DNA of 64,000 bases, from contig JANQFW010000042.1 in NCBI GenBank assembly GCA_028277625.1, positions 2,675 to 66,674 on the forward strand. The letters are read 5' to 3'. Positions within the stretch are counted from its first letter, which is position 1. Each line of letters begins with the position of its first letter. Shown one piece after another: positions 4,121 to 21,903 of the stretch. A program made the translations under genes and the position numbers. Below the pieces are notes generated by a model that worked only from the letters and a program-made list of their open reading frames with translations, was not told the DNA's origin and did not search any database. Source of the stretch: Candidatus Gastranaerophilales bacterium. GTDB lineage: Bacteria > Cyanobacteriota > Vampirovibrionia > Gastranaerophilales > JANQFW01.

Positions 4121-6199
4121 TTATTTTAGATAATCATTCAGGTCATAATTTTTGATTTTTTTGTCTATTTTTACTTTTAAAATATTATTTTTAAACTCTG
4201 CTGATTGTATTGAATTTTTACAGTCTATAATAGTTGCAAACATTATATTTTTATCAGATTCTACAAATGAATTAATTGTATTAGTGGGTAGTTTTATGTC
4301 GAAGCTTCTTGATACCCACCCGTATATTGGATCCTGTGCACCATTTATAATATTAGTTTTTTGTGGAGCAGTAGAAAAAACGTATTTTTTAATTTCATGC
4401 TTGTTATTGCTAATTTTAAAGCAGTTTGAGCTTTCTTTAACTGTACAATTTTCATTTAAATGCCAATTTAGGCTATATTTATTATCTTTTTTTTCTGTAT
4501 ATAGCCGATCTATTATTATAAAATATCCTTTTTTTTCAAATAAGACTTCTCTTTGGTGCTTTACTTTTCTTTGTTGCTTTATATAACCGTCGTGCCAGGC
4601 TCTAATATACTCAAAATCGTCATTTGAAAGCATACTCTCGAGGCGAACATTTGCTTTTTTCAGCCATAGAAAATTGCCACCTATCTCGGACTGATTCATA
4701 TTATCTACCATTACTGTATTGTGTGCGGCAGTGCCTTTGAAGTAATTTCTCCATTCTTTTTTAGAGTGGTACGCATAAGTACCCGGATCAATTAAGAATT
4801 CTGTATCATTAACACTTAAACAGAATGAAAGCGCGTCAGCGTGACCATGCGCTGCTATTGATAAAAATCCAAGATTACCAATATCAAAATATGCTTTTAT
4901 GTTGTCATGATTAAAGATATAGTAGCCGCTACTCATTAAAAATCTGGATTTATTTTTTGGTTTTTCTGCTTTAACATCACTGTATTTTTTTTCAGCTTCT
5001 GCGCCAAAATACCATAGATTTTTAATGTCTAGCTTTTCTTTTGCTTTAAATTTATATTCTTTAGAATTAAATAAAAGCACACCTGCATTAAACAATGATA
5101 AAATATTTTCTTTATAATCAGAGATAAACCCGGTAACATATCCATCATCACTGTCGCCTATATTTGGAATATTAAGGTTGTCATCAGTAAATTCCATGAG
5201 GACATTTATTATTTTGTTTAACTTGTCCCAAGATTTTTTAGGTATTTTATGCCCATTTTTTTCTAGAATTAAGAAAGAAATTATATAAAAATCAAGTGAA
5301 AAACAATGATATGCTAGTGCTTGCTCTTTATTTACGCCATCATTAAAGAATTGGTTATCTAATTCTTTGAGTAAAATTTTCAAGCCTTTTTCGCGCCATT
5401 TTTTAGATATTGGCCCAAAATCGTATAAAGAGCCACTAATACACAATCCAGCTGCTTCTCCTATTAAATGATTATTGGCTGAAGAATGCGAAGACGTATG
5501 ATGATTTATGTAGTGAGCGTGTTGATATATGCTATTAAGCAGCTCAAGCATTACAATATCCGGGATCTTATAACCCAGAATGCTTAATGTATTAATGGCA
5601 TAGGACCAGGAAATTAGTCTTATTGCCAGCTCAAGAGAGCTAGTCCAATTTATACCCATTAAGTAGGTATTACTATTTATCCAGTTATATATTTGTTTAA
5701 TTACTTCATCAGCGTAGCGATTATCTCTGGTGATTGTGTATGCTTCTATCAATGGATAAAAGTGCAGAAATCGATTTAATTCCCAGATGTATTTTATATC
5801 ACCTATTTCATGGCTATCACGATAATTTAGTTTGTTGTACAGGTCAACAGGGCAGGACTTCATGCTGGAGTAATCCATATTCCAATTTATGTTTTCGCCT
5901 GCTTTTATTTTGTTTAAGTTAAAAAAGCTAAACTCGTGGTCTAATATGCTATTAGCTTTTTTGAGAATCTTTTCTTTTAAGTCATTATTTTTATTATAGA
6001 ATTTGGCAATCGCTTGCAGGTCTTTTTCTTCTAACAAAAACTTCCCAAAATTTATTAGGGAAAAATCGTAATTTTCCAGATTTTTTTTGCAAGAAACAAT
6101 ATAAAGCTCTTTACTCTTGGCAAATACCCGATGAGTGATCTCCGGCACACCCATTACTGATAGTCTGTTAACATACCATTGTAGTTTATTCTGTTTCAT
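4121..6199 (-). CDS. Heparinase II/III family protein (alginate-lyase-like N-domain), no signal peptide
   Basis: 692 aa. Contains NWTSSLELAIRLISW and HSSANNHLIGEAAGL motifs typical of heparinase II/III-like proteins in polysaccharide loci. The C-terminal half is beta-rich. It lies 11 nt upstream of the dehydrogenase gene on the same strand. Confidence 0.7.
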   Translation of the reverse strand: MKQNKLQWYVNRLSVMGVPEITHRVFAKSKELYIVSCKKNLENYDFSLINFGKFLLEEKDLQAIAKFYNKNNDLKEKILKKANSILDHEFSFFNLNKIKAGENINWNMDYSSMKSCPVDLYNKLNYRDSHEIGDIKYIWELNRFLHFYPLIEAYTITRDNRYADEVIKQIYNWINSNTYLMGINWTSSLELAIRLISWSYAINTLSILGYKIPDIVMLELLNSIYQHAHYINHHTSSHSSANNHLIGEAAGLCISGSLYDFGPISKKWREKGLKILLKELDNQFFNDGVNKEQALAYHCFSLDFYIISFLILEKNGHKIPKKSWDKLNKIINVLMEFTDDNLNIPNIGDSDDGYVTGFISDYKENILSLFNAGVLLFNSKEYKFKAKEKLDIKNLWYFGAEAEKKYSDVKAEKPKNKSRFLMSSGYYIFNHDNIKAYFDIGNLGFLSIAAHGHADALSFCLSVNDTEFLIDPGTYAYHSKKEWRNYFKGTAAHNTVMVDNMNQSEIGGNFLWLKKANVRLESMLSNDDFEYIRAWHDGYIKQQRKVKHQREVLFEKKGYFIIIDRLYTEKKDNKYSLNWHLNENCTVKESSNCFKISNNKHEIKKYVFSTAPQKTNIINGAQDPIYGWVSRSFDIKLPTNTINSFVESDKNIMFATIIDCKNSIQSAEFKNNILKVKIDKKIKNYDLNDYLK

Positions 6200-6339
6200 A
6201 ATACTCCCCGTTGCAATGTGCTACAGGCAGTATATTAATATTTCAGGATGTACGAACAATACTTCCGGTGTTTATTCGAGCGGGTGATTTTTATATTTTG
6301 AAATATATTCTTAAATAAAAAATCATAATGACAATATTA

Positions 6340-6813
6340 TCAATACGGTGTTTTATTATCTTTTTCTTTCCAGCTATTAAAGGTTTTTATTGTTTGCTCT
6401 CTTAAAAAGTTTTCTGTAGGAATGTCTCTATTTTCTATCATCTTTTTGATTTCTTCGAAAAGAAAATCATCTCTAAATCCAATATTTGCAGCATCTTTGC
6501 GAGTATTACCATAATATATTTTAGAAATATTTGCCCAGTAGATAGCACTTAGACACATTGGGCAAGGCTCACAGGAGGTATAAATTTCGCAGCCTGATAG
6601 GTCAAAAGTATTTAAATTTTTACAGGCATCTCGTATTGCGACTATTTCGGCATGTGCTGTTGGGTCATTTGTGCTTGTTACTTTGTTATTGCCTTTGCCT
6701 ACGATTTTATCATCTTTTACTATTATTGCACCAAATGGTCCGCCTTCGTTATTTTTCATTCCGTTTTCTGCCAGGTCTATGGCGCACTGCATATAGAATT
6801 CTTTTTTATCCAT
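6340..6813 (-). CDS. guaD: Guanine deaminase (CMP/dCMP-type zinc deaminase, GuaD-like)
   Basis: 157 aa. Contains GGPFGAIIVKD, NDPTAHAEIVAIRDAC and YTSCEPCPMCLSAIYWA (HAE + PCxxC zinc site). Colinear with my memory of B. subtilis GuaD, which has about the same length. Confidence 0.75.
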   Translation of the reverse strand: MDKKEFYMQCAIDLAENGMKNNEGGPFGAIIVKDDKIVGKGNNKVTSTNDPTAHAEIVAIRDACKNLNTFDLSGCEIYTSCEPCPMCLSAIYWANISKIYYGNTRKDAANIGFRDDFLFEEIKKMIENRDIPTENFLREQTIKTFNSWKEKDNKTPY

Positions 6814-6968
6814 AATTTTTTGCCTTGATATTATTATTTACTTTTATTTTATAGCACAAAAAAAGCCTAAAAAATGTTGACTGCATTCATTTAATAAGTT
6901 TGTCATCCTCTTCTGCCTTATCAGTTGATTTATCTTTAAGAAATTTAAACTAATTAATTAATGAAATA

Positions 6969-7010
6969 TTGACAAACTTAAAGATACGTATTAATATACG
7001 TATAAGGAGG
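6969..7010 (+). promoter_or_regulatory. Sigma70-like promoter, twin palindromic operator and SD of the prlF-yhaV operon
   Basis: TTGACA at 6969-6974, then a 17-nt spacer, then TAATAT at 6992-6997. Two copies of the 8-bp palindrome ATACGTAT (6984-6991 and 6996-7003) flank and overlap the -10. AAGGAGG at 7004-7010 lies 8 nt before the ATG at 7019. Confidence 0.5.
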
Positions 7011-7018
7011 ATATCATC

Positions 7019-7375
7019 ATGAGCTCACAATCATACGACGGCAAAATTACAACAAGCGGATCTTCGCAAGCAATCCGTATAATAAAATCATTTTTCGATG
7101 CGAATCCCGAATTCGAGCAAAAAGCCAATATCAAAGCTTATCCTATCGGAAAAGGGAAAGCACTTATTTCTGTTGTCCCTCAAAGTGAAGTTGAAAAAGA
7201 TGATAAGGAAGATCCTTTATTTGATTCCTTTTTAAGTTTTCTTGAAAAAGATATGATTGAAAATCCCCAAAATCTAACTCCCGTTTCTCAAAAAGACTTT
7301 AGTGCAACTAAAGATCTACTTGAAGGGGTTGAGGTTTCTGAGAATGATGAAATGCCGGAAGATTTTGAATTATAG
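7019..7375 (+). CDS. prlF: Type II antitoxin, PrlF (SohA) family
   Basis: 118 aa. The C-terminal half FDSFLSFLEKDMIENPQNLTPV...DEMPEDFEL is colinear with my memory of E. coli PrlF (AFLRFLDADIQNNPQKTRP...DDEIGDDE). It sits directly upstream of a YhaV-family toxin. Confidence 0.8.
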   Translation: MSSQSYDGKITTSGSSQAIRIIKSFFDANPEFEQKANIKAYPIGKGKALISVVPQSEVEKDDKEDPLFDSFLSFLEKDMIENPQNLTPVSQKDFSATKDLLEGVEVSENDEMPEDFEL

Positions 7376-7387
7376 AAGACAGGGTAG

Positions 7388-7846
7388 ATGCACGAAGACG
7401 GCTGGAAAATTTATTTTCATCCTGCATTTGAGCAGGTAAGGCAAAAATTAATTGAAGATGTTTTAACGTTGAAAGACAAAGACCCTATTAGTTATAAAAA
7501 GCATCCGAAAACAAAATTTTTAAAAAAGATAGATGATCTTATTTTTAAAGAAATACCGCTTGATCCTGCAAATGAAAATTATTTACAGGGAAATACATTA
7601 GGGAGTAAGCACAGACATTGGCGCAGAGCAAAATTATTTAAAAGATTCCGCTTATTTTTCAGATTTCACAGTGAGCATAAAATTATTATTTATGCATGGC
7701 TAAATGATACTAATTCACTAAGAAAAGCTGGCTCCAAGAATGACCCTTATAATCTTTTTGTAAAACGCTTAAAAAATGGAAATCCACCTGGAACTTGGGA
7801 TGACTTGCTAAAAGAGAGTTCTGTACCAACAAATTTACTGCTTTAA
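7388..7846 (+). CDS. yhaV: Type II toxin, YhaV family ribonuclease
   Basis: 152 aa. Contains GWKIYFHPAF, KDPISYKKHPKTKFLKKI, IPLDPANENYLQGNTLGSKHRHWRRAKL, RFRLFFRFHSEHKIIIYAWLND and the acidic/proline tail GNPPGTWDDLL. This matches the YhaV family pattern. Confidence 0.85.
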   Translation: MHEDGWKIYFHPAFEQVRQKLIEDVLTLKDKDPISYKKHPKTKFLKKIDDLIFKEIPLDPANENYLQGNTLGSKHRHWRRAKLFKRFRLFFRFHSEHKIIIYAWLNDTNSLRKAGSKNDPYNLFVKRLKNGNPPGTWDDLLKESSVPTNLLL

Positions 7847-8245
7847 ATAACTACTAAAATTTTTTTCTGATACTGGCTTAAAAGTACAGTTTTCATGTAG
7901 ACTTCCGCCGGCATAAGTCTTTTCTGGATAATTACGGCACATTCCGGGTCTATCTTCATAATCAGGGCAGAGGTTATTTTCTTTTATCAAGCTGCATCTG
8001 AGTATTAAATTGCCGAATGCATCTTTGCCGGTTATTTTAAATCTTTTATATTTAGGGAAAAATAATGCCATAAGCTTAAAGTCCAACATTGCAAACGGTC
8101 CTGCACAATAAATAAATCTACAGCAATCACCACAACGCGAACAGCTACCCTCCAGCCTGTACTTCATCTTTCTAAAATACAAACTTGGAAAAAATTCATA
8201 AAGCAAAATTTTAAAAGGACTCTTAAACATTATTATACTGCTCAT
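7835..8245 (-). CDS. YkgJ-family cysteine-cluster protein (CxxCxxCC putative Fe/Zn-binding)
   Basis: 136 aa. Contains CSRCGDCCRFIY near the N-terminus and CPDYEDRPGMCRNYP near the C-terminus, the two signature blocks of the family. It is convergent with yhaV, with a 12-nt overlap. Confidence 0.65.
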   Translation of the reverse strand: MSSIIMFKSPFKILLYEFFPSLYFRKMKYRLEGSCSRCGDCCRFIYCAGPFAMLDFKLMALFFPKYKRFKITGKDAFGNLILRCSLIKENNLCPDYEDRPGMCRNYPEKTYAGGSLHENCTFKPVSEKNFSSYLKQ

Positions 8246-8615: not shown

Positions 8616-10346
8616 ATGTACAAATTAAATAAAAATAAAATAAAATTCTCTTTGTTTATATTAATTCTGGGTTTAGCCGCTAATTATTTTATCTGCAGCT
8701 TTTTAGCAGCACACTCTCTGGTGTTAGCATTACCAATGCTTTTTATTGGAGGAATTACCTTTTACTTAATAGTTAACCTAATTTTGTATGCCAAGGCTAG
8801 CACTAATTTTGTATTGCTTTTATCAGTAGCAAACCTGCTTTTATTTTTAATATTACTATTTATTCCGTATTTTATATATGCAAAAGCCTTTTCTGTTGAT
8901 GCAAGCTTAATTATTGAAGTAAATTACATTGCAGCAACGTTAGCATACTCGTTTAGCGCAGGTATAACCAAGATTTCTATTGACAGCCAGGCACAAACAG
9001 AACAAAATATTCAAAAAATTATATCTCCAGAGTCAGATACACCCGAAAATAATGCTCCACAAGCTATAAATCCAACTGTAGAAATGCCTGAGCCGACTGT
9101 TCCGAATGAAATGGCTGCGGCTTCATCATCTGAGACCAGACAAGAAGAAGTTATAGAAGTAAACAGCTCTGAACCGGATAATAATATTGAACATAATGAA
9201 GAGCCAAGCGCTGAATCTATATATGGATCTGTTGATAGTGAAATTGAAGAAGAAGCAGACGTATTTTTAGAAGATGAGTCTTCAAGTTTATTAGGAGAAA
9301 CACCTTCTGCATCTTTAGACGAACTACCTGAAATTCAACTAGACGAAAATCAAATTAGGCAAAATGAGGAAGTTAACTATCCACCCTCTACACCACCAAA
9401 AGCAGCACCTTCAACTTCTAGTGATGGCGTGAAAGTTTATGAATTTGAAGATTACTCAGATGAGGACAATGAAGGAGAAGCTGAGGGCCTAAAAATATCG
9501 GGAAATATCAGAGTAGTTGAGGTACAAGAAAACGAAGAAGAAGCGCAAGGCTCAATCGCATCAATTGCAAAACTATTGGTAAACCAGCGAGATGTAGAAA
9601 ATGTAATCCAAATTAATGAAATTATGCAGCAAATCGGTTGTGATACCGGCAATACAAAAGTTGTTTCGATGAATAAAGGTATAGAAATTTATGAGTCATT
9701 TAATAAGCTAAAAGTTGATTACCCACAAATTAAAGACATGGCAATAGTTGAGCAAAATGGCTTTATTATTGCTTCATATTTTGAAAACAAAAGAAAAGAG
9801 CAGACCTGTTGTGCGTTAGGTTCTGGGATTTACCTCATTGTACAAAATTATTTAGCTCAGCTCAATTTGAGCCCTGAAAGAATTTTCTTTGTTTTTGATG
9901 ACCAAACAATTTCTATAAACAACCTGAATGATCAAGTATTCTATATGAGTTTTTCTAATACCCTTAATATACTTGAGTTTAATCAATCTGAAATATTCTT
10001 GAACAAGCAAAATATCACAGAATCTGATTATACTTCATTGCAACAAACAGATGGAATTAACAGAGCTATATTAACCCACAGCAATAAAACTGTGGTTAGT
10101 ATTTATAATGAGGATAATATCAAAAAATACACAAGTGTATCAAATGCAATTTATGACAATTTAAGAGTATTCCTTATGAACATATTAAAAGGAACTCTTA
10201 AGCATATTATTTTAAGCTGTGATAACGAGACCTTAGTGATTTCTAAAAAAGAACAGCAATTATTAATTTTAGGTTATGCCCCTGATTCAACGGTTAAAGT
10301 ATCAAACAAAATTAATGAAATAGAGAATTTAATAAGTAAGGACTAA
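8616..10346 (+). CDS. Membrane protein: 4 predicted TM helices, acidic/Pro-rich linker, two C-terminal Roadblock/LC7-like domains
   Basis: 576 aa.
- Hydrophobic segments lie in aa 12-118.
- A D/E/P/S-rich low-complexity region spans aa 125-310.
- aa ~355-447 (DMAIVEQNGFIIASYFE...CCALGSGIYLIVQNYLAQLNL...ERIFFVFDDQTISINNLNDQVFYMSFS) follows the strand-helix-strand pattern of MglB/Roadblock domains.
- aa ~470-558 (INRAILTHSNKTVVSIY...SNAIYDNLRVFLMNILKG...LKHIILSCDNETLVISKKEQQLLILGYAP) follows the same pattern.
- The stop lies 3 nt before the pilB ATG. Confidence 0.55.
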   Translation: MYKLNKNKIKFSLFILILGLAANYFICSFLAAHSLVLALPMLFIGGITFYLIVNLILYAKASTNFVLLLSVANLLLFLILLFIPYFIYAKAFSVDASLIIEVNYIAATLAYSFSAGITKISIDSQAQTEQNIQKIISPESDTPENNAPQAINPTVEMPEPTVPNEMAAASSSETRQEEVIEVNSSEPDNNIEHNEEPSAESIYGSVDSEIEEEADVFLEDESSSLLGETPSASLDELPEIQLDENQIRQNEEVNYPPSTPPKAAPSTSSDGVKVYEFEDYSDEDNEGEAEGLKISGNIRVVEVQENEEEAQGSIASIAKLLVNQRDVENVIQINEIMQQIGCDTGNTKVVSMNKGIEIYESFNKLKVDYPQIKDMAIVEQNGFIIASYFENKRKEQTCCALGSGIYLIVQNYLAQLNLSPERIFFVFDDQTISINNLNDQVFYMSFSNTLNILEFNQSEIFLNKQNITESDYTSLQQTDGINRAILTHSNKTVVSIYNEDNIKKYTSVSNAIYDNLRVFLMNILKGTLKHIILSCDNETLVISKKEQQLLILGYAPDSTVKVSNKINEIENLISKD

Positions 10347-10349
10347 TAA

Positions 10350-12365
10350 ATGTCGACCAGAAAAAACTTGCTTAACGAGCTTTTGCTGGAAGCTCAAATA
10401 TTAAATAAAGATCAATTAGGTATTATAAACGAAAAAAAAAGTAAATCTGACAAACCTTTCCTTGAGCTGATTAGCGAAACAGCAAGCTTGGATAAAAATG
10501 AGCTTAGCAATCAGTTAAAAGATTTGTTAGAGTTGCAATACGGTGTTGCTTTTATTGAGCTGGCTAATGCTCAAATTGACGAAGATCTGATAAATGTCTT
10601 CTCAGTGGACTTAATAAAGAATCATAAATTTTTGCCGCTAGGGCAAAGCGGTAATATGTTTACACTTGCAATGACTGACCCTGATAACCTTGTTGCGGAT
10701 CAAGATATCAACTTTAGGTTGCAAAACAACAATTTTAAAGATTATAAAATAAAAAAAGTAGTTATTTTTGAAGATGACTTTGACAACTACGCTAGCAGCA
10801 AATTTGCAAAAAAAGAATCTGCAAATCAGGAAATTGAGCAAGATACAGATGAATTGATATCCTCAATAGGTATTGAAGTAGAGCAAGCTACTGCAGATAT
10901 ATCTGATGATGTATCTGACCTGATGAATTCTGCGCAGGAAGCACCTATTATTCAGCTTGCAAATAGCATCCTGGGTGTTGCAATAAAAAGGGGGGTTAGT
11001 GATATCCATATTGAGCCCAGGGAAAAAGAGTTGCAGGTTAGATACAGGCTCGACGGTGTTCTTAGTATTTATAAAATACTTCCTAAAAAAATTCAAAACT
11101 CAATTACATCAAGATACAAAATTATGTCTGAGCTTGATATCTCTGAAAGAAGACTGCCGCAAGACGGTCGTATCAGAGTGAAAATGTCAAATAAAATGGT
11201 TGACTTTAGGGTGTCAACTCTACCAAGCAAGTTTGGCGAAAAAATAGTTATGCGGATTCTGGATAAGTCTAATATTTCTCTTGGGCTAGATCAATTAATA
11301 ACTAACCCTGAAATATTAGAACTGGTAAGAGAAATGATTAGTCGTCCATACGGTATTATATTTGTAACAGGACCAACAGGAAGCGGCAAGACAACTACTT
11401 TGTATAGTGCCTTAAGCGAAAGAAATACACCGCAAGTAAACATATCAACAGCAGAAGATCCTATTGAATATGACCTTGATGGTATAACCCAGTCTGAGGT
11501 GAATAAAGTAATTGGTATGGATTTTGCCAAGATATTAAAAGCGTTTTTAAGACAAGATCCCGATATAATGCTAGTTGGAGAAACAAGGGATAAAGAAACT
11601 GCTAAAATTGCTATTGAAGCGGCATTAACAGGTCACCTTGTATTTACTACACTCCACACAAACGATGCACCAAGTTCTATTATGAGGCTTGAGGAAATGG
11701 ATATTGAGCCATTTCTTATATCTAGCTCAATCATAGGTGTTATTGCCCAGCGACTGCTGCGCCGAATTTGTTCAAATTGTAAAGAATCGTATGAACCTGA
11801 TCTTGAAATGCTAAAGTTTCTGGGAGTTGAAAATTTTTCAAATAAGACTTATTACAGGTCAAAAGGTTGTGATAAGTGTAATAACACCGGCTATAAAGGT
11901 CGAGTTGGTGTCTATGAAGTTATGAAAGTTACAGACGAGTTAAGAGACTGCATCTCAAAAGGAGTAAATACTGCAATTTTGAAATATCAAGCTCAACAAT
12001 CCGGTATGAAAACACTGCTTGAGTACAGTTTGGATATAGCAAGAGAAGGCCATACAACCCTTGATGAAGTTATTAGGGTTACCTTTACATCTGAAGGACA
12101 ATCGTCAATGTGCCCGAACTGTAGCAAACCTGTTGGAGACGAATTTTATAAATGTCCGTTTTGTCAGCATGATCTCAAAAAGACTTGTCCTAAATGCAAA
12201 TCGATACTTCAAGAAGGTTGGTCAAATTGCGCAAAATGCGGATTTAATACTTCTGAAGTAATAACAGAATCAGTTTGCCCAACATGTAGCGGCGACATTG
12301 CATTAGAGATGAACGAGTGTCCATGGTGCTTTACCACGTTAGCAGAATTAAACTTAAATAAATAA
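10350..12365 (+). CDS. pilB: Type IV pilus assembly ATPase PilB (GspE family) with C-terminal triple zinc-ribbon extension
   Basis: 671 aa. N-terminal T2SSE_N-like domain. Walker A GPTGSGKTTTLY. Asp/His boxes (EDPIEY, LRQDPDIMLVGETRD, TGHLVFTTLHTND). The usual tetracysteine CSNC...CDKC is present. An extra 85-aa tail carries six CxxC pairs. Confidence 0.9.
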   Translation: MSTRKNLLNELLLEAQILNKDQLGIINEKKSKSDKPFLELISETASLDKNELSNQLKDLLELQYGVAFIELANAQIDEDLINVFSVDLIKNHKFLPLGQSGNMFTLAMTDPDNLVADQDINFRLQNNNFKDYKIKKVVIFEDDFDNYASSKFAKKESANQEIEQDTDELISSIGIEVEQATADISDDVSDLMNSAQEAPIIQLANSILGVAIKRGVSDIHIEPREKELQVRYRLDGVLSIYKILPKKIQNSITSRYKIMSELDISERRLPQDGRIRVKMSNKMVDFRVSTLPSKFGEKIVMRILDKSNISLGLDQLITNPEILELVREMISRPYGIIFVTGPTGSGKTTTLYSALSERNTPQVNISTAEDPIEYDLDGITQSEVNKVIGMDFAKILKAFLRQDPDIMLVGETRDKETAKIAIEAALTGHLVFTTLHTNDAPSSIMRLEEMDIEPFLISSSIIGVIAQRLLRRICSNCKESYEPDLEMLKFLGVENFSNKTYYRSKGCDKCNNTGYKGRVGVYEVMKVTDELRDCISKGVNTAILKYQAQQSGMKTLLEYSLDIAREGHTTLDEVIRVTFTSEGQSSMCPNCSKPVGDEFYKCPFCQHDLKKTCPKCKSILQEGWSNCAKCGFNTSEVITESVCPTCSGDIALEMNECPWCFTTLAELNLNK

Positions 12366-12387: not shown

Positions 12388-13467
12388 ATGTTACTAGAAG
12401 AATTATTACAGTTAGTATTCCAAAAGGGGGGAAGTGACTTACACATATCAGTAGGTTTACCTCCTGTAATAAGGGTTGATGGAAAACTTATTAGAACAGA
12501 CCATCCACCTCTCACTAAAGAAGATGTTCAAAGATTAATATTTAGTATGTTGAATAACGAACAAAGACGAAATTTGGAGCAAAACTGGGAACTGGATTGC
12601 AGTTATGGTGTTTTTGGTTTAGGACGATTTCGTGTTAACGTATATAAAGAACGGGGAAACTACGCAGCAGCACTGCGTACAATTAACTCAGAGGTGCCCA
12701 GTTTTGAGCAACTTGGCTTGCCTTCTGTGGTTAAGGAAATTGCTGAAAGGCCTCGTGGCTTAATCCTGGTTACAGGCCCGACCGGTAGCGGTAAGTCTAC
12801 TACACTTGCTACTATGATAGACCACATTAACCAAACCCGTAAAGAACATATTTTAACAATTGAAGATCCTATTGAATTTTTACATACATCCAAGCGCTGC
12901 ATTGTACACCAACGTGAATTAGCACAAGACACTCGAAGTTTTAGCAATGCGTTAAGAGCAGCTCTTCGTGAAGATCCTGATATTATACTTGTTGGTGAGC
13001 TTCGTGACCTTGAAACTATTTCTTTGGCTCTAACTGCAGCTGAAACAGGTCACCTTGTAATGGGAACGCTTCATACCTCATCTGCTAGCCAAACAGTTGA
13101 CCGTATAGTTGATGTATTCCCGGCAGAGCAGCAACAACAAATTAGAGTTCAGCTGTCTAACAGTTTAGTGGCAGTATTTAGTCAGACATTAGTACCTAAA
13201 CTTGACCATACTGGCCAGAAAAAAGGTAGGGCTCTTGCTCAAGAAATTATGGTAGTAACACCTGCGATTGCTAACCTAATTAGAGAAGGTAAAACTGCAC
13301 AAATATACTCTGCGATTCAAACAGGTGGTGCCCAAAAAATGCAAACACTGGAAAATACTTTAAGAGACCTTTATCAGAAAAAACTAATAACCTATGATGA
13401 TGCATTATCAAAAACAAGCCGTCCTGAAGATCTAAAAAGAATGCTTGGCAGTGGTGCATCTGTCTAA
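12388..13467 (+). CDS. pilT: Twitching-motility retraction ATPase PilT
   Basis: 359 aa. Contains GGSDLHISVGLPPVIRVDGKL, LIFSMLNNEQRRNLEQNWELDCSYGV, GPTGSGKSTTLA, REDPDIILVGELRD, TGHLVMGTLHT and the AIANLIREGK motif. Confidence 0.95.
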   Translation: MLLEELLQLVFQKGGSDLHISVGLPPVIRVDGKLIRTDHPPLTKEDVQRLIFSMLNNEQRRNLEQNWELDCSYGVFGLGRFRVNVYKERGNYAAALRTINSEVPSFEQLGLPSVVKEIAERPRGLILVTGPTGSGKSTTLATMIDHINQTRKEHILTIEDPIEFLHTSKRCIVHQRELAQDTRSFSNALRAALREDPDIILVGELRDLETISLALTAAETGHLVMGTLHTSSASQTVDRIVDVFPAEQQQQIRVQLSNSLVAVFSQTLVPKLDHTGQKKGRALAQEIMVVTPAIANLIREGKTAQIYSAIQTGGAQKMQTLENTLRDLYQKKLITYDDALSKTSRPEDLKRMLGSGASV

Positions 13468-13608: not shown

Positions 13609-14841
13609 ATGCAAAAATTTAATTACAAAGCAAGAGATGAAAAGGGCAATTTGATTAGCGAAAAAGGCTTTTATGCCGAAAACGTTAGTGCTGCCAGAGA
13701 ACAGCTCTTGCAAAAAGGGTTGTGGATAATTGAACTGAAAGAAGAAAGCAAAGCTGCGGATTTATTAAATTTTGAGCTGGACAGTGTGTTTGCAAAGTTC
13801 GCCGGAGTGTCTTTAAAAGACAAAGTAATATTTTGCAGACAATTTTCATCATTGGTAAATTCTGGTGTGGCTATGCTTAGGGCTATGACAATATTATCTG
13901 AGCAGTGCGAAAATCCAAAATTGAAAAAAATCTTAAGAGACATTAAAGAAAAGCTTGAGCAGGGTTCTTCTTTGTCTGATGCTTTTGCTCAGTACCCAAG
14001 TGTGTTTGATAAGTTATTTATAAGTATGATAAAAGCCGGCGAAACCGGTGGTATTCTTGATGATGTATTAATGAGAATTGCTGCATTTATGGAAGATAAA
14101 GCAAGATTAAACGCACAAATTAAATCAGCACTAACTTATCCGACTGTAGTTACTATTTTAGCAATGGTAATCTTTGTTGTTATGTTGACCTTTATTCTTC
14201 CAAAATTCTCACAAATTTTCTCTAAACTGGGCGGTGAATTGCCTGCTTACACACAGTTTTTGATAAATATAAGTGAACTATTACGCTCTTATTGGTCGCT
14301 TGTACTTATTGCGGGTGTAATATGCTTTGTGTGGGCTTTTAAAAAGATATATTCTTTGGAAAAAGGTAAATATATAATTGATGCCTTGACCCTAAAAGTA
14401 CCTTTATTTGGTCCGTTATTGCAAAAAGTTGCTGTTGCCAGGTTTACTAGAACGCTTGGTACACTTATTAGAAGTGGTGTTCCGATTTTAATTTCATTAG
14501 AAATTGTTCAGGAATCATCAGGAAACGCAGTATTGTCCAAAAATGTAGGTGAAGTTTACGAGGAAATAAAGCAAGGCGGGGCATTATACTCAAAATTAGA
14601 AGAATCCCCTTTATTTCCACCAATGGTTACATCAATGATTTCTGTTGGTGAAGAAACCGGTGAGTTAGACAATATGCTTAACAAAGTTTCTGACTTTTAT
14701 GATTCTGAAATTGAACGAACTGTCGAAGCACTTACTTCATTAATAGAACCACTTATGATGGTTGTATTAGGTGGTATGATCGGAGCTGTAATTGTCGGTA
14801 TGTACCTGCCCATGTTTGCGATATTTGATCAGATCAATTAA
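13609..14841 (+). CDS. pilC: Type IV pilus platform protein PilC (GspF family)
   Basis: 410 aa. The T2SSF repeat is duplicated (FCRQFSSLVNSGVAMLRAM... and FTRTLGTLIRSGVPILISL...). Three TM segments. The C-terminal LIEPLMMVVLGGMIGAVIVGMYLPMF is typical. Confidence 0.9.
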   Translation: MQKFNYKARDEKGNLISEKGFYAENVSAAREQLLQKGLWIIELKEESKAADLLNFELDSVFAKFAGVSLKDKVIFCRQFSSLVNSGVAMLRAMTILSEQCENPKLKKILRDIKEKLEQGSSLSDAFAQYPSVFDKLFISMIKAGETGGILDDVLMRIAAFMEDKARLNAQIKSALTYPTVVTILAMVIFVVMLTFILPKFSQIFSKLGGELPAYTQFLINISELLRSYWSLVLIAGVICFVWAFKKIYSLEKGKYIIDALTLKVPLFGPLLQKVAVARFTRTLGTLIRSGVPILISLEIVQESSGNAVLSKNVGEVYEEIKQGGALYSKLEESPLFPPMVTSMISVGEETGELDNMLNKVSDFYDSEIERTVEALTSLIEPLMMVVLGGMIGAVIVGMYLPMFAIFDQIN

Positions 14842-14851
14842 TTAAGATATC

Positions 14852-15499
14852 TTATCTAAATAGAGGCTTTCTTGTTGAATTCAAAAAAGTGGTCATATTT
14901 TTGTATTGACCATTAGCTCTGTTTATAGAATTACCTGCAGCAGCAAAGTTAAAGTTTGGCTTGGTTGCCAATAAAACTTTACAGTCATTAGGTTTGTTTG
15001 TAGGCTTTTTGTCGTTTCTTGTTATAAAATTTCTGATTTTGGATGCTGAGTAGTTTCTTACTATTGGTATAACGGTACCAACACTTATTAGTGTTGCAAA
15101 CAGATTGCCAACCATAGTAGCACCTTTTTGAAACTTTTGAAGTTCGCTGCCTTTAGTGCTAAGTTCTTGTTGGATTTTATCCAAAGAATAATCTTTGCAA
15201 GATTTTGGCAGAAGTTTACCTTTTGCTACAGCCTTTTTGAATACAGCTTCAAAAGGGCTAGTAAAAGCTAAAAACAAACTGAAGGTAATAATTCCTTCTA
15301 CTATCTCTTGTGGGACTAGAAACTTTTTTTCGTGGTTAGATATTTTATCATTAATACAGACTGCAATGGTTTCTGCGATTGATGAAACACCAAGAGTTAA
15401 GGCCATTGATCTTGATAAAAATTTTGCAGGATCTTTGGTATAGCAGTTGCCGCATTTTTTTGCAAACGAGTATATATTTTTAAACACTGGGTTAGCCAT
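14852..15499 (-). CDS. Hypothetical membrane protein (paralogue of the upstream ORF)
   Basis: 215 aa. Two hydrophobic segments and an AKGKLLPKS loop. The start overlaps the stop of ORF 15492-16079 by 8 nt. No recognisable family. Confidence 0.45.
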   Translation of the reverse strand: MANPVFKNIYSFAKKCGNCYTKDPAKFLSRSMALTLGVSSIAETIAVCINDKISNHEKKFLVPQEIVEGIITFSLFLAFTSPFEAVFKKAVAKGKLLPKSCKDYSLDKIQQELSTKGSELQKFQKGATMVGNLFATLISVGTVIPIVRNYSASKIRNFITRNDKKPTNKPNDCKVLLATKPNFNFAAAGNSINRANGQYKNMTTFLNSTRKPLFR

Positions 15500-16079
15500 T
15501 ATTTAGCTTGCCCCCTGCTTTATTTTTCTTTTTATATTTTTCTGGGAATATTTTTTTCAGAATATTATTAATCAAATAGTTTGTAAGGGGCAGGTCTACA
15601 CTAAACATTGAAATAACAGTTACTGCTATACTAGTTGTATGCTTGACACCATCAGCCAATTTTTTATCCATAAGCAACTCTTTAGGGAGTTTACCATTTT
15701 TGGCTAGCTGATCCCAAATTTTTGCAGTTCCCCACCTTGTACAGATGCCAACACTGGCACCGGCAACTATTTTAGCTAAGGTCTTAGCTAGCGAACATTT
15801 TCTGGTCTCATCGGTTTCTTTTCTATTAGAATACCAATCCATAGCGGGCTGAGAGCTTAACTCGATAGCAGCTACTACTGCCCTTTGTTGATAAGGTTTT
15901 AGCCCGCCAAGTTTTTTAAGAAGACCAGCACCTTTATCACCTACAGTTATTTTAGGAAATGAATCAGCAATATTGCTTGTAATTCTTTCCATTGTGCTGC
16001 CTTTAAATGCTTGGTTTTCTGTTTTATTTATCTGTGTTCTTTCCCGAAGTCTTTTAGAATTATTTCTTAACGCTATCAT
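15492..16079 (-). CDS. Hypothetical membrane protein (paralogue of the downstream ORF)
   Basis: 195 aa. Same architecture as 14852-15499: a helix, a loop, a TM segment, AKNGKLPKEL, then a TM segment ending in a basic tail. The true start may be the internal MERITSN. Confidence 0.45.
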   Translation of the reverse strand: MIALRNNSKRLRERTQINKTENQAFKGSTMERITSNIADSFPKITVGDKGAGLLKKLGGLKPYQQRAVVAAIELSSQPAMDWYSNRKETDETRKCSLAKTLAKIVAGASVGICTRWGTAKIWDQLAKNGKLPKELLMDKKLADGVKHTTSIAVTVISMFSVDLPLTNYLINNILKKIFPEKYKKKNKAGGKLNNG

Positions 16080-18489: not shown

Positions 18490-21318
18490 ATGTTACAGAT
18501 CCTAGATTTCATCCTTTCAAAGTTTAGCAAAATTTCTCTTATTATCGTTGAAAAAATAATCAATACAATTATTTATATTTTAAATATATTTCGTACTAGT
18601 TTTTATCTAAATAAAGCTGAAAAAAATATCAAAGAAGAAAATTATGAACTTGGAATTAAAAATTTGGAGAAAGCTGCAAGGTACGTTGATAACAATAGTA
18701 CAGGAGAGAGGTATTACATTATTCACTATAAAACTGGCAAGTGTTACTTTCACCTTGCACAGAAAAAAAATGATATAGAGAGTTACAAAAAAGCAAAAAA
18801 TCATTTTGAGAAAGCTATTATTAAATTTTCTTATTATGACAAGAGTGAATATAAAAAATTAAACAAATTCTTAATGAATATAAAAGATAATATTTTTAAA
18901 TATGAGTACAAGCAATATAATTTTGATAGTACCAAAATCAGAAATTCAATAGATAATATAAAGGAAGCACTTGAAGGTTATAAATTTGACTCTTCTGATA
19001 AACTACAAGCCCTAATATATGCTGAAATACAAAGTAACTTAGCTACTTGTTATACTAAAGAATTAGAAAATGAAAATAACAATGATTATATTAAAAAGGT
19101 TCTACTCGCATATCATGAATGCTTAAGAGTTTATAGCCCAAGCGAATACACGGAAAAATATCTAAATAATATTGAAAAACTAGGTGTCTTTTATATAAAC
19201 AACATGTCTAGCAACCAGGATAATTTATCTACTGCTATTAATCATTTAAACAATGCTCTTCACATTTATTTATCCAATTTTAAAGCTTACGAAAGAGAAG
19301 TATCAAGAATAAACTATTATCTGGGAAAAGCTTTTTATAAAATGGGAAAAATTGAAAACTCAAAAGATAACTATAATAAAGCTATTGAATGTTTAAAGCT
19401 AGCAAATAATGATTCTGTGAAAAAAGAAGAATCCGAAAAATTAGCTCAAATACTTGATTTAAAAGGATTATGCTATATGAAACTTTTTAAGTTAATCGAT
19501 AACAAAGCAAATCTGGAAAAATCCAATAAATCCTACGAGGAGGTTTTATCAATTTATCAGTCAGGTAAATCTGACGATAAACTATTAAGACTATGTTACG
19601 TTCGTTGTCATATAGGATTAAATTACTTAAACTTGGCAAAAATTGAGAACGTACAAATTAACTTGGACAACGCGTTAAATAAATACATGCAGGCGTTTAA
19701 TGATTATGAAAACATTATCAAAAATACAAATGAAAACAGACTGCTGGAAATTAATAAAAAAGACAAAATTAAGTACGAAGCCTGCTATCATAGAAGCCGT
19801 ATTTATCTTTTTAAAGCAGAAGTGAAAGATACAAAAGAAAATATAGGCTATGCATTAGAGGACATAGAAGAATCTAAAAAGTCAATTCCATCTAAGGTTG
19901 AGCCTGAATTTATTTGTAAGCTATCAAGCGTCAGGGCAAAAGCTTTAACAATAAAAAGTGAACTTGTGGATAGAGGTAAAAACTTAGAATTAGCAAATGA
20001 AAATATTAGCTGCTCGATCGATAACATAAATAAGGAAAAAAATCCTATTTATTATTCTAACTTTATGAATAGAAAAGGAGATATTTTTATAGAATTGTCT
20101 CATATTAGAAAAAAAAATAAACAGTTAAAAACAGCTGAAGAGGCTTATGAAGAAGCTTTAAGTATTAAAACTCTTGAAAAATATCCTATAGGAAATGCTA
20201 TTACTCATAAAAAGCTGGTTAATTTGTTTATTGAAAAAGCAAAAATTAAAAACACTCAGGAGAATTTAGATGAAGCTTGCAAGCATATTAAAAATGCAAA
20301 TGTTTTTTGTTCTAAAATAGTAAATCTCCCTTATGAACTTGGTAAAATATATGTTCACTGTGGCCAAATTCAACATTTATTCAGCAAAATCAAAAAAAAC
20401 TATAATGGTTATAGCAATGCAAGTGAAGCATCTTTTAATAAAGCTCTAGATATATTTACATCAGAAAATTTTCCCATTTGGCATACGAAAATTGAATATC
20501 AGTTGTGTGATTTAAAAATTACAATAGTAAAAATTGACTATATAAAAAATAAAGAGAATAAGCTAGACAAAGAGATACTTATAGACACTATATTTAAACT
20601 TGAAGACATTCTAAAAATTATGAAAGATCAGGGTTACATTTATAAGCAAGCAAAAATTTGCAGCAAACTTGCAGATTGTTACTTAATGCTAGCATCAGAT
20701 GATATAATTGGAGATAAAGAATCAAAGCATCTTGAAAGTGCTGAAAACTACTTAAATGAGACACAGAATATATTTAAACCTGACTCTAGCCCTTTAGATT
20801 ATTCTGATCTAGCCAATAGACTGGGGTATTTGTCTTATTTAAAATATTTAGAACATTCTAATAATGAAAATCTGTTTAATGAAGCAGAAAAATATTATAA
20901 AGAGGCGCTGGACAAAAGACCTTTCAAAGATTATCCGATACATCAAGCTTATATACTTGAAAATATGGGAGACTTATATTTGGAAAAAGCCTCAAAGGTT
21001 GAAAGCAGTGAAGGCTCTCAAAGATATAAGGATAATGCTAAAGATTGCTACGAAAAAGCGATGTCTGTATTTATCTCGGAAAACTATGTTCATGACATAG
21101 AAAATTTGAGAACCAAGTTGGAAAAAGCATACTTACACGATATATTAATTAATGATGAGCTAAGAAGTAGTTCTATTAACGATGTATTAACCAGTAAAGA
21201 TTTAACAAGCAAATACATTGATGATATATTAAAAAATGACAAGCTAAAAGATCTTATAGAGAAAGAGATTAATCGTAGTGAATCAGCAATACAGCTAAAA
21301 AATCAGGGTGATAAATAG
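18490..21318 (+). CDS. Large TPR-like helical-repeat protein, function unknown
   Basis: 942 aa. GGAGG lies 9 nt upstream of the ATG. Hydrophobic N-terminus. Many roughly 34-40-aa helical units of the form A..Y...A/L...P (e.g. AEEAYEEALSIKTLEKYP, AEKYYKEALDKRPFKDYP). Confidence 0.55.
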   Translation: MLQILDFILSKFSKISLIIVEKIINTIIYILNIFRTSFYLNKAEKNIKEENYELGIKNLEKAARYVDNNSTGERYYIIHYKTGKCYFHLAQKKNDIESYKKAKNHFEKAIIKFSYYDKSEYKKLNKFLMNIKDNIFKYEYKQYNFDSTKIRNSIDNIKEALEGYKFDSSDKLQALIYAEIQSNLATCYTKELENENNNDYIKKVLLAYHECLRVYSPSEYTEKYLNNIEKLGVFYINNMSSNQDNLSTAINHLNNALHIYLSNFKAYEREVSRINYYLGKAFYKMGKIENSKDNYNKAIECLKLANNDSVKKEESEKLAQILDLKGLCYMKLFKLIDNKANLEKSNKSYEEVLSIYQSGKSDDKLLRLCYVRCHIGLNYLNLAKIENVQINLDNALNKYMQAFNDYENIIKNTNENRLLEINKKDKIKYEACYHRSRIYLFKAEVKDTKENIGYALEDIEESKKSIPSKVEPEFICKLSSVRAKALTIKSELVDRGKNLELANENISCSIDNINKEKNPIYYSNFMNRKGDIFIELSHIRKKNKQLKTAEEAYEEALSIKTLEKYPIGNAITHKKLVNLFIEKAKIKNTQENLDEACKHIKNANVFCSKIVNLPYELGKIYVHCGQIQHLFSKIKKNYNGYSNASEASFNKALDIFTSENFPIWHTKIEYQLCDLKITIVKIDYIKNKENKLDKEILIDTIFKLEDILKIMKDQGYIYKQAKICSKLADCYLMLASDDIIGDKESKHLESAENYLNETQNIFKPDSSPLDYSDLANRLGYLSYLKYLEHSNNENLFNEAEKYYKEALDKRPFKDYPIHQAYILENMGDLYLEKASKVESSEGSQRYKDNAKDCYEKAMSVFISENYVHDIENLRTKLEKAYLHDILINDELRSSSINDVLTSKDLTSKYIDDILKNDKLKDLIEKEINRSESAIQLKNQGDK

Positions 21319-21468
21319 ATATTATAGAAAAACATATTAAAAATGAACATTAAATATTATCGATGCTATTGAAGCAAAAAAATAATAATGTTAGAATCAA
21401 TAAATAGAAATAATATTAAATTTAGAGCTAAAAAATATTTATTTAATATATGCAGCCTGGAGAATTTT

Positions 21469-21903
21469 ATGATCAGAAATTTAACTTTTATTAAAACAAT
21501 TTTAATGAAAGGTGTAATAGATAAAGAGGAAATGCATCGACTAGTGGAAGAATATCAAGAAGATGCGTTTTCAATATTGCAGCATCTTGTAACAGAAAGC
21601 CCGCACAGAAAAGAAGAATTTGCAAGGCTATGGGGCGATTCTTTAGGCTTGAGTTACGTAAATCTTAAAAAAACTTTTTTCCAAAAAGATGTAATGTTTA
21701 AAATTCCGCAGGATTATGCAATGGAAAACAAAGTAATTGCAATTTATCAATTTGGTCACGTTACTACAGTAGCACTTTCTGACCCTACTCATCCTTTTTT
21801 AAAAGAAGATGTTGCTAAGTATTTGAATACGCCTGTTAATGTTGTTTTTTCTATGCCCGATGAAATTGAAGATGCGATATTTAGCCAATATCAATCTGAT
21901 TAA
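21469..21903 (+). CDS. Stand-alone T2SSE_N (GspE/MshE N-terminal)-like domain protein
   Basis: The track ORF starts at 21388. I prefer the ATG at 21469, which has GGAGA 6 nt upstream. The sequence GVIDKEEMHRLVEEYQ...LGLSYVNLKKTFFQKDVMFKIPQDYAMENKVIAIYQFGHVTTVALSDPTHPFLKEDVAKYLNTPVNVVFSMPDEIEDAI follows the N-terminal domain pattern of PilB/GspE. No ATPase domain is attached. Confidence 0.6.
   Translation: MIRNLTFIKTILMKGVIDKEEMHRLVEEYQEDAFSILQHLVTESPHRKEEFARLWGDSLGLSYVNLKKTFFQKDVMFKIPQDYAMENKVIAIYQFGHVTTVALSDPTHPFLKEDVAKYLNTPVNVVFSMPDEIEDAIFSQYQSD

Follow-up and report, generated by a model that had tools for sequence, protein, structure and literature searches.

The type IV pilus extension ATPase PilB of Vampirovibrionia ends in a three-ribbon tail, an expanded form of the cyanobacterial PilB1 finger extension

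The stretch of DNA analysed here, 64,000 nucleotides (nt) long and referred to below as the window, belongs to a Melainabacteria/Gastranaerophilales-type genome and carries a set of type IV pilus genes, among which pilB is the subject of this work. pilB (10350..12365, + strand) encodes a type IVa pilus extension ATPase of 671 amino acids (aa) with a C-terminal extension of three tandem zinc ribbons. It is followed after 22 nt by pilT, encoding the retraction ATPase (12388..13467, +), and then by pilC, encoding the platform protein (T2SSF; 13609..14841, +), both assigned by Pfam matches. The order pilB-pilT-pilC is kept in related loci, including the synteny of pilT, and the open reading frame (ORF) at 10350-12365 is the pilB gene of a pilB-pilT-pilC operon.

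The assignment as PilB is based on Pfam, on the NCBIfam model TIGR02538 and on a match to a solved structure. An MshEN domain, the N-terminal type usual in PilB (aa 64-147; 10539..10790, +; PF05157, 48 bits), precedes the T2SSE ATPase core (aa 195-576; 10932..12077, +; Pfam, 440.8 bits), in which the catalytic motifs, including the Walker A motif GPTGSGKT, are invariant. TIGR02538 matches end to end (model positions 2-562 of 564 on aa 8-578) with 611.5 bits, which is under the NCBI equivalog cut-off of 675.65; this shortfall is expected because the phylum is divergent, and PilB is still the top-scoring family, with GspE second at 562 bits. The Geobacter PilB structure 5tsg matches at E = 2e-145. 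In an alignment of 93 homologues of 50-93% identity (A1), the residues G341-K347, E411, H429 and H436 are invariant, as are the four cysteines of the GspE/PilB core tetracysteine CSNC...CDKC (C474, C477, C507 and C510; 11769..11879, +), a site that binds zinc in GspE and PilF.

The ORF continues beyond the point at which classical family members end. The alignments to the Geobacter and Myxococcus PilB structures both stop at about residue 580, as the initial annotation had stated for Myxococcus, the match to Thermus PilF is over by residue 592, and beyond aa 578 the NCBIfam library returned nothing that covers the tail, only noise. The T2SSE, MshEN and TIGR02538 matches together with a DZR match in Pfam bear out the view of a complete PilB ATPase followed by an extra C-terminal module.

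This tail comprises residues 587-671 (85 aa) and consists of three CxxC-x10-CxxC zinc ribbons. It is joined to the core by a flexible linker (aa 581-587; 12090..12110, +), and after the ATG codon of M587 (12108-12110) the protein reads CPNC-SKPVGDEFYK-CPFC, CPKC-KSILQEGWSN-CAKC and CPTC-SGDIALEMNE-CPWC. These are ribbon 1 (R1, C588-x2-C591-x10-C602-x2-C605; 12111..12164, +), ribbon 2 (R2, C613-x2-C616-x10-C627-x2-C630; 12186..12239, +) and ribbon 3 (R3, C643-x2-C646-x10-C657-x2-C660; 12276..12329, +), with a poorly conserved linker between R2 and R3 (aa 631-642; 12240..12275, +) and only 11 residues between the end of R3 and the stop of pilB. Spacer position 8 is aromatic or hydrophobic in each of the three, and residues 581-671 hold 12 cysteines in 91 positions against 5 in the 580 residues of the PilB core. 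R1 and R2 jointly form a Pfam DZR unit (PF12773, aa 588-631, model positions 1-45 of 45), which scores 30.4 bits in the whole protein and 42.6 bits in the isolated tail at a gathering threshold of 27.3 bits. The motif reading, the DZR match and the homologues thus agree with the six CxxC pairs and three tandem zinc ribbons that had been proposed from the window alone; the spacings then given as x11, x10 and x12 were right for the middle ribbon and miscounted for the outer two, which also have x10.

The units had also been likened to rubredoxin, a description that we do not retain. Rubredoxin is an iron-binding domain of about 50 aa with CxxCG...CPxCG about 29 residues apart and an aromatic core, whereas CPxC-type knuckle pairs with hairpins of about 10 residues are zinc ribbons. 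No rubredoxin Pfam match was found in the window PilB at E <= 0.1, the spacers are of 10 residues, and only the generic knuckle motif is common to both, for which reason we class the units as zinc ribbons; by the same motif the tail knuckles probably bind zinc. They differ from the core tetracysteine, which is likewise of the CxxC...CxxC kind in the window PilB, in that the latter lies inside the ATPase fold, has a spacer of about 29 residues and is found in nearly all family members, whereas the tail ribbons are additional to it, autonomous and lineage-restricted. The generic zinc-ribbon domains Zn_ribbon_3 and UPF0547 are, with Pfam DZR, near to the tail in kind, R1 and R2 being over the DZR threshold and the ribbons being modelled as knuckle and beta-hairpin units; DZR is a generic fold family of unassigned function, and the third ribbon and the PilB context lie outside its definition.

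Structure prediction gives a similar picture of separate small units. With the full alignment, AlphaFold2 modelled the protein at a mean predicted local distance difference test score (pLDDT) of 78, with values of 57-74 in the tail and a collapse at 581-584 (below 50) and at 638-640. The tail alone, modelled with an alignment of 32 Vampirovibrionia tails (A2), reached a mean pLDDT of 73.7 and a predicted TM score (pTM) of 0.37. In the tail models a short beta-hairpin accompanies each CxxC pair, a short helix lies between R2 and R3, and the knuckles, at pLDDT values of about 60-85, are separated by low-confidence linkers. As modelled, the tail is a set of small autonomous knuckles on flexible tethers, and the low pTM leaves the arrangement of the ribbons relative to each other undefined.

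The conservation pattern follows the same division. All 12 tail cysteines and G631 are invariant in the 93 sequences of A1, where P594, G596, P603, F604, Q606, L609, K610, W624, S626 and P658 are conserved to at least 90%, W624 being invariant in A2. Between Gastranaerophilales-like and Obscuribacterales-like sequences, the identity is 0.62 for R1, the most conserved ribbon, 0.51 for R2 and 0.34 for R3, compared with 0.08 for the R2-R3 linker and 0.16 for the linker between core and tail, 0.77 for the ATPase and 0.53 for its C-subdomain. Conservation of the non-cysteine surface of R1 between the orders (0.54) is similar to that of the ATPase C-subdomain, and two homologues (P0057 and P0059) carry a 40-residue insertion between R2 and R3. 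From the ribbon and linker identities between the two groups, the ribbons, R1 foremost, are under selection comparable to that on parts of the enzyme, with connectors that are free to vary. The homologues also bear on whether the tail could be an artefact, in which a frameshift or read-through near 12100 lengthens the ORF. We found no support for this reading, which we regard as virtually excluded: an in-frame tail of the same architecture with invariant cysteines is present in more than 100 homologous protein clusters of public assemblies, the DZR match is over its cut-off, and a Shine-Dalgarno-like GAGGAG and the pilT start lie at normal distance past the pilB stop. The initial annotation had itself named a sequencing-error extension near this position as what would overturn its view, and the clusters with the same tail and its 12 cysteines dispose of that concern.

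The tail is not peculiar to the window. Among the window PilB and 117 close homologues, for which the source names are few and all Candidatus Melainabacteria, Gastranaerophilales or Obscuribacterales, three ribbons with spacers of 10/10/10 are present in 105/118, two in 11/118 and none in 2/118. Three ribbons are the rule in Vampirovibrionia, for Gastranaerophilales-like and Obscuribacterales-like PilBs alike. The pilB-pilT-pilC order is intact in the natural two-ribbon and zero-ribbon variants. In one tail-less relative (P0075; L086 9738-9899) the pilB stop stands directly after ...RVTFSGM, and no remnants of ribbon codons were found in the 163-nt AT-rich spacer between this gene and pilT, which makes it a clean deletion by which one Gastranaerophilales-like lineage lost the tail entirely.

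Ribbons are also found at greater distance. An exhaustive HMMER scan of 1.84 billion cluster representatives at 50% identity yielded 16,645 relatives at E <= 1e-30. Of the best 150 of these, 42 had one or more C-terminal ribbons according to a motif scan, most of them two; with P0121 and P0148, three-ribbon representatives that the motif scan overlooked, the count rises to at least 44/150, or about 29%. The named sources of ribbon-bearing representatives are few and comprise Planctomycetota, Deltaproteobacteria, Nitrospiraceae and Binatia, while the label 'Stenomitos sp.' on the 7.6-kb contig of a metagenome-assembled genome (MAG) that carries P0148 was not trusted. The domain architecture MshEN-T2SSE-DZR-Response_reg was assigned by Pfam in eight of the representatives tested. 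A claim that the module is specific to one lineage, as first made, cannot be upheld next to these representatives, the three-ribbon majority of the close homologues and the single ribbon of all 80 cyanobacterial loci described below. When the ATPase cores of 130 representatives were compared in a rooting-free statistic, the nearest neighbour by identity of a ribbon-bearer was also ribbon-bearing in 77% of cases versus 33% expected (permutation p < 1e-4). In a neighbour-joining tree the ribbon-bearers fell into two adjacent clades that are, with one exception, separate from the classical tail-less PilBs; we relied upon the nearest-neighbour statistic because this tree has no support values and an arbitrary midpoint rooting, which leave one gain with losses versus several gains unsettled. 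As judged from these core identities, ribbon presence is inherited and phylogenetically clustered, not sporadic.

The scan brought up two further kinds of protein. Eight representatives (P0140, P0142, P0153, P0164, P0172, P0200, P0236 and P0241) are fusions of a PilB-type ATPase, a DZR unit, a Pro/Ala-rich linker and a receiver domain; such DZR-receiver fusions come from Planctomycetota, Deltaproteobacteria and MAGs, P0236 being 1528 aa long, and no description of this architecture was found in the searchable literature. Several proteins of about 1000 aa among P0123-P0139 matched the query in two stretches and are tandem double T2SSE ATPases, with the PilB-like unit before or after the second ATPase unit. 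These double ATPases, which lack a zinc-ribbon tail, make up a separate branch of the neighbour-joining tree.

A single-ribbon counterpart is known from oxygenic cyanobacteria. Schuergers and colleagues are said to have described, in 2014, the C-terminal tetracysteine zinc finger of cyanobacterial PilB1 as an Hfq-docking extension. Binding of Hfq by this finger is stated in the literature (Schuergers and Wilde 2015, PMC4390875; a review, PMC12288463), the PilB of other bacteria being said to lack a C-terminal zinc finger domain (PMC4390875), and Hfq docking in Synechocystis, as known from published work, is the only experimental information on any member with a ribbon tail. We assembled a cyanobacterial set that started from a tblastn match on Acaryochloris plasmids and was extended by a scan of species-representative genomes to 80 loci, and in 80/80 the PilB C-terminus reads ...TD[ST]GLEAELKAKRKxxLTCRxCxAxLKPEWLDCPYC[MT]TPRF.., with a single CxxC-x10-CPYC ribbon. 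Two loci of Acaryochloris marina, L001 (pREB6, 5776-7803) and L088 (pREB2), are stand-alone PilB1 paralogues that keep the ribbon and have neither pilT nor pilC downstream. Their surroundings are a duplicated island that also holds zigA, the gene of a zinc metallochaperone GTPase, and several Fur-family repressors. The pREB2 copy of the island has in addition the genes of a metallothionein and of an SmtB-type regulator, a setting that hints at a link of PilB paralogues to zinc homeostasis.

In an hhalign comparison of 26 cyanobacterial tails (A3) with A2, the cyanobacterial ribbon aligned on R3 (window residues ~640-669) at 96.9% and E = 1.6e-10. With hidden Markov models (HMMs) run in both directions, the cyanobacterial ribbon and the R3 of Obscuribacterales gave 39 and 28 bits, R1 and R2 reaching 7-10 bits; in the window's own order the cross-scores were weak (5.6-9.5 bits). 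The cyanobacterial finger and the window R3 both lie at the extreme C-terminus of a PilB encoded in a pilBTC cluster and have the spacing CxxC-x10-CxxC, both the finger and the window tail are absent from the classical Geobacter and Myxococcus PilBs, and the tail has profile-level homology to the Hfq-docking domain through R3. The finger aligns with the Obscuribacterales R3 down to EW..CPYC.T.R, the latter retaining GEW..CPYCQT.R. Cyanobacterial PilB1 has one ribbon after the basic stretch GLEAELKAKRK, whereas the window protein has three ribbons and no such stretch, R1 and R2 standing in its place; nor does it have PEWLDCPYC[MT]TPRF, and R3 reads EMNECPWCFTTL where cyanobacterial PilB1 has PEWLDCPYCMTPRF. 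By position and profile R3 is clearly a homologue (orthologue) of the cyanobacterial PilB1 finger, but the interaction surface is not conserved: the window R3 (LEMNECPWCFTTL) has strongly diverged from PEWLDCPYCMTPRF and has lost the PEWLDCPYC-TPRF surface. The Synechocystis PilB1-Hfq pair to which the initial annotation had pointed is therefore a fitting precedent, as the alignment to R3 and the reported Hfq binding agree.

R1 and R2 have their counterparts elsewhere. The MshEN-T2SSE-DZR(-Response_reg) ATPases of other phyla, known here as database domain matches for which no describing paper was found, carry the DZR unit directly after the core with the same x10 spacing as in the window. Those of Planctomycetota, Deltaproteobacteria, Nitrospiraceae and Binatia have two ribbons versus three in the window, in many cases followed by a low-complexity linker and a receiver domain. 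Against R1, the first ribbon in the two-ribbon clades (X_RA HMM) scored 32-34 bits, while the second scored 28.5 bits against the cyanobacterial ribbon, 25 against R3 and 21 against R2. On the simplest reading of these scores, R1 and R2 would be the widespread DZR unit, R3 would be another copy of the type seen in the second ribbon, and oxygenic cyanobacteria would keep R3 alone, behind a basic stretch. The tail is an expanded three-ribbon form of the cyanobacterial PilB1 finger extension, with a DZR unit already recognised by databases as its basis, and not a new invention.

What does such a tail do? We consider it fairly probable that it is an inherited, zinc-stabilised docking platform for accessory proteins on the pilus motor, which is the best explanation because the tail is modular and flexibly tethered, its ribbon surfaces are conserved, and in other phyla the same unit sits at the junction to receiver domains. 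The three independent four-cysteine knuckles, joined by flexible linkers, would be present six times per hexamer and could form a ring of small, rigid, zinc-stabilised knobs at the C-terminal end of the ATPase domain, and these knobs may bring in or hold in place accessory or regulatory proteins by which pilus extension is controlled. R1 and R2 form the DZR unit of many PilB-type ATPases of other phyla, where it is often the connector to a receiver domain. As R3 is without the cyanobacterial PEWLDCPYC-TPRF surface, its partner may not be a cyanobacterial-type Hfq. Natural ribbon-number variants that keep pilBTC and the existence of DZR-receiver fusions fit an accessory add-on interface better than a catalytic part. 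Partner docking was also the function suggested at the outset, and by analogy to the Hfq-binding finger that aligns with R3 it is the best supported one.

The main rival to a docking platform is that the tail braces the C-terminal ATPase subdomain, within its own chain or on a neighbouring protomer, and so tunes the hexamer. We rate this as unlikely. In its favour, the tail could pack beside the canonical zinc tetracysteine that the core already uses structurally, the conservation of R1 comes close to that of the ATPase C-subdomain, as would be expected of an interface with a conserved surface such as PilB itself, and the DZR unit between ATPase and receiver in other phyla could pass a conformational signal to the core. 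The poor conservation and low model confidence of the linker at 581-587 do not fit a brace well, nor do the lineages that keep an intact pilBTC operon without R3 or without the whole tail, and for the homologous ribbon of cyanobacteria a different protein, Hfq, is the reported partner (PMC4390875).

Several observations weigh against the docking platform. The AlphaFold2 output contains no inter-domain contacts, and the tail may yet dock back on the ATPase. A Foldseek search of the PDB with the tail model gave no significant match (best E = 0.023), the non-significant ones being generic multi-zinc modules (GATOR2, RadD, UBR4 and PolD DP2), and a sequence search of the PDB with the tail likewise returned nothing significant (best E = 0.042, a MetRS zinc knuckle). 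Zinc binding by the tail is read from the motif. The HMM of the window-type R3 (G_R3) scores 5.6 bits on cyanobacterial ribbons, with which it has little in common besides the cysteines, and this makes the same partner for the window R3 doubtful. No partner of the tail was found in the window or the related loci searched, and neither the 64 kb of the window nor ~100 kb of related loci yielded an Hfq-like ORF, a result that carries no weight for the genome as a whole. The latter result comes from phmmer searches, all with E > 0.7, that used the Synechocystis and Anabaena Hfq sequences, both verified (3hfo was matched along its whole length by the Synechocystis query, and the Anabaena structure 3hfn was also matched), and an E. 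coli sequence. In the literature we found no paper naming both Hfq and Melainabacteria, and none on a PilB with a double zinc ribbon or on the tail in Melainabacteria.

Nucleic-acid docking was the second function initially proposed for the tail. The ribbons would then hold DNA or RNA near the base of the pilus, for instance in pilus-dependent DNA uptake or as an RNA tether that replaces Hfq. Zinc ribbons are common in nucleic-acid-binding proteins, R1 and R2 are mildly basic (isoelectric point, pI, 8.5), and there are weak matches to RNA polymerase subunit M, TFS4, PolD DP2, RadD and a ZRANB2 finger, but all of these matches are non-significant (E >= 0.004). The tail as a whole is acidic (pI 5.0), R3 strongly so (pI 4.05), the cyanobacterial homologue has a protein as its partner, and RNA binding by cyanobacterial Hfq is itself considered unlikely (PMC12288463). 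We do not favour this function and regard it as quite improbable. A similarly slim chance is given to the tail as a metal or redox sensor, in which 12 extra thiols per protomer would release zinc on oxidation or zinc limitation and so switch pilus extension. The very high cysteine density would suit such a role, as would the position of the ribbon-bearing Acaryochloris PilB1 paralogues inside a Fur-family/zigA/metallothionein-SmtB island, but this evidence is purely circumstantial, the paralogues retain all cysteines and so are not zinc-sparing replacements, and no feature of the window ties pilB to metal regulation.

The gene directly upstream of pilB was considered as a source of a tail-specific partner and rejected. 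It is an ORF of 576 aa (8616-10346, +) that ends 4 nt ahead of pilB and encodes a protein that has hydrophobic segments at its N-terminus and a long acidic middle part of low complexity and that is conserved over its C-terminal half (about 250 aa). No Pfam or NCBIfam match was obtained for it, and its earlier designation as a Roadblock protein has no support from Pfam. It is conserved directly 5' of pilB in Gastranaerophilales-like genomes (27% identity) whatever the state of the tail, being found 5' of tail-less and two-ribbon pilB genes as well, and it is absent 5' of the three-ribbon pilB of Obscuribacterales.

Other features of the window may be recorded here. A stand-alone MshEN protein of 171 aa (21388-21903, +) is encoded downstream of a 942-aa TPR protein (18490-21318) and matches the N-terminal 137 positions of TIGR02538 at E = 4e-10; judged by this match, it could be a regulator that binds cyclic di-GMP or mimics PilB. 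Upstream of the pilus genes lies a YhaV-family toxin (7388-7846, +; E = 1.5e-53), preceded by a 118-aa ORF that is its likely antitoxin (region 7019-7846). The end of the toxin gene is overlapped by that of a CxxCxxCC putative zinc/iron-chelating protein on the opposite strand (7835-8245, -), and a CxxCxxCC protein is also encoded near pilBTC in the relative L086. Directly downstream of pilC, on the opposite strand, are two overlapping ORFs of 215 and 195 aa (14852-16079, -), which are lysine-rich with hydrophobic segments and have no Pfam match.

PilB models that stop at about residue 580 lead annotation to overlook a conserved functional module. Cyanobacterial pilus research has treated the PilB finger and the Hfq/EbsA complex as a matter of cyanobacteria only, and the statement that the finger is lacking in other bacteria (PMC4390875) is too narrow. 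What is new is the homology of R3 to the Hfq-docking finger, in non-photosynthetic sister lineages and within a three-ribbon array, together with the natural variants in ribbon number and the DZR-receiver fusions. The tail is thereby recast as an old modular interface on the extension motor, with two-ribbon versions in several unrelated phyla, and the natural variants with one, two, three or no ribbons are material for dissecting this interface. A bolder idea, which we put forward tentatively and think improbable as it stands, is that the cyanobacterial PilB1 finger is the last remnant of an ancient multi-ribbon tail of a large PilB subclade that spans several phyla, and that the three-ribbon tail serves as a multivalent hub with one regulator per ribbon, R1 and R2 binding a widely conserved partner and R3 a lineage-specific one. 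If true, type IV pilus extension ATPases would in general be subject to a layer of control that has not been described before.

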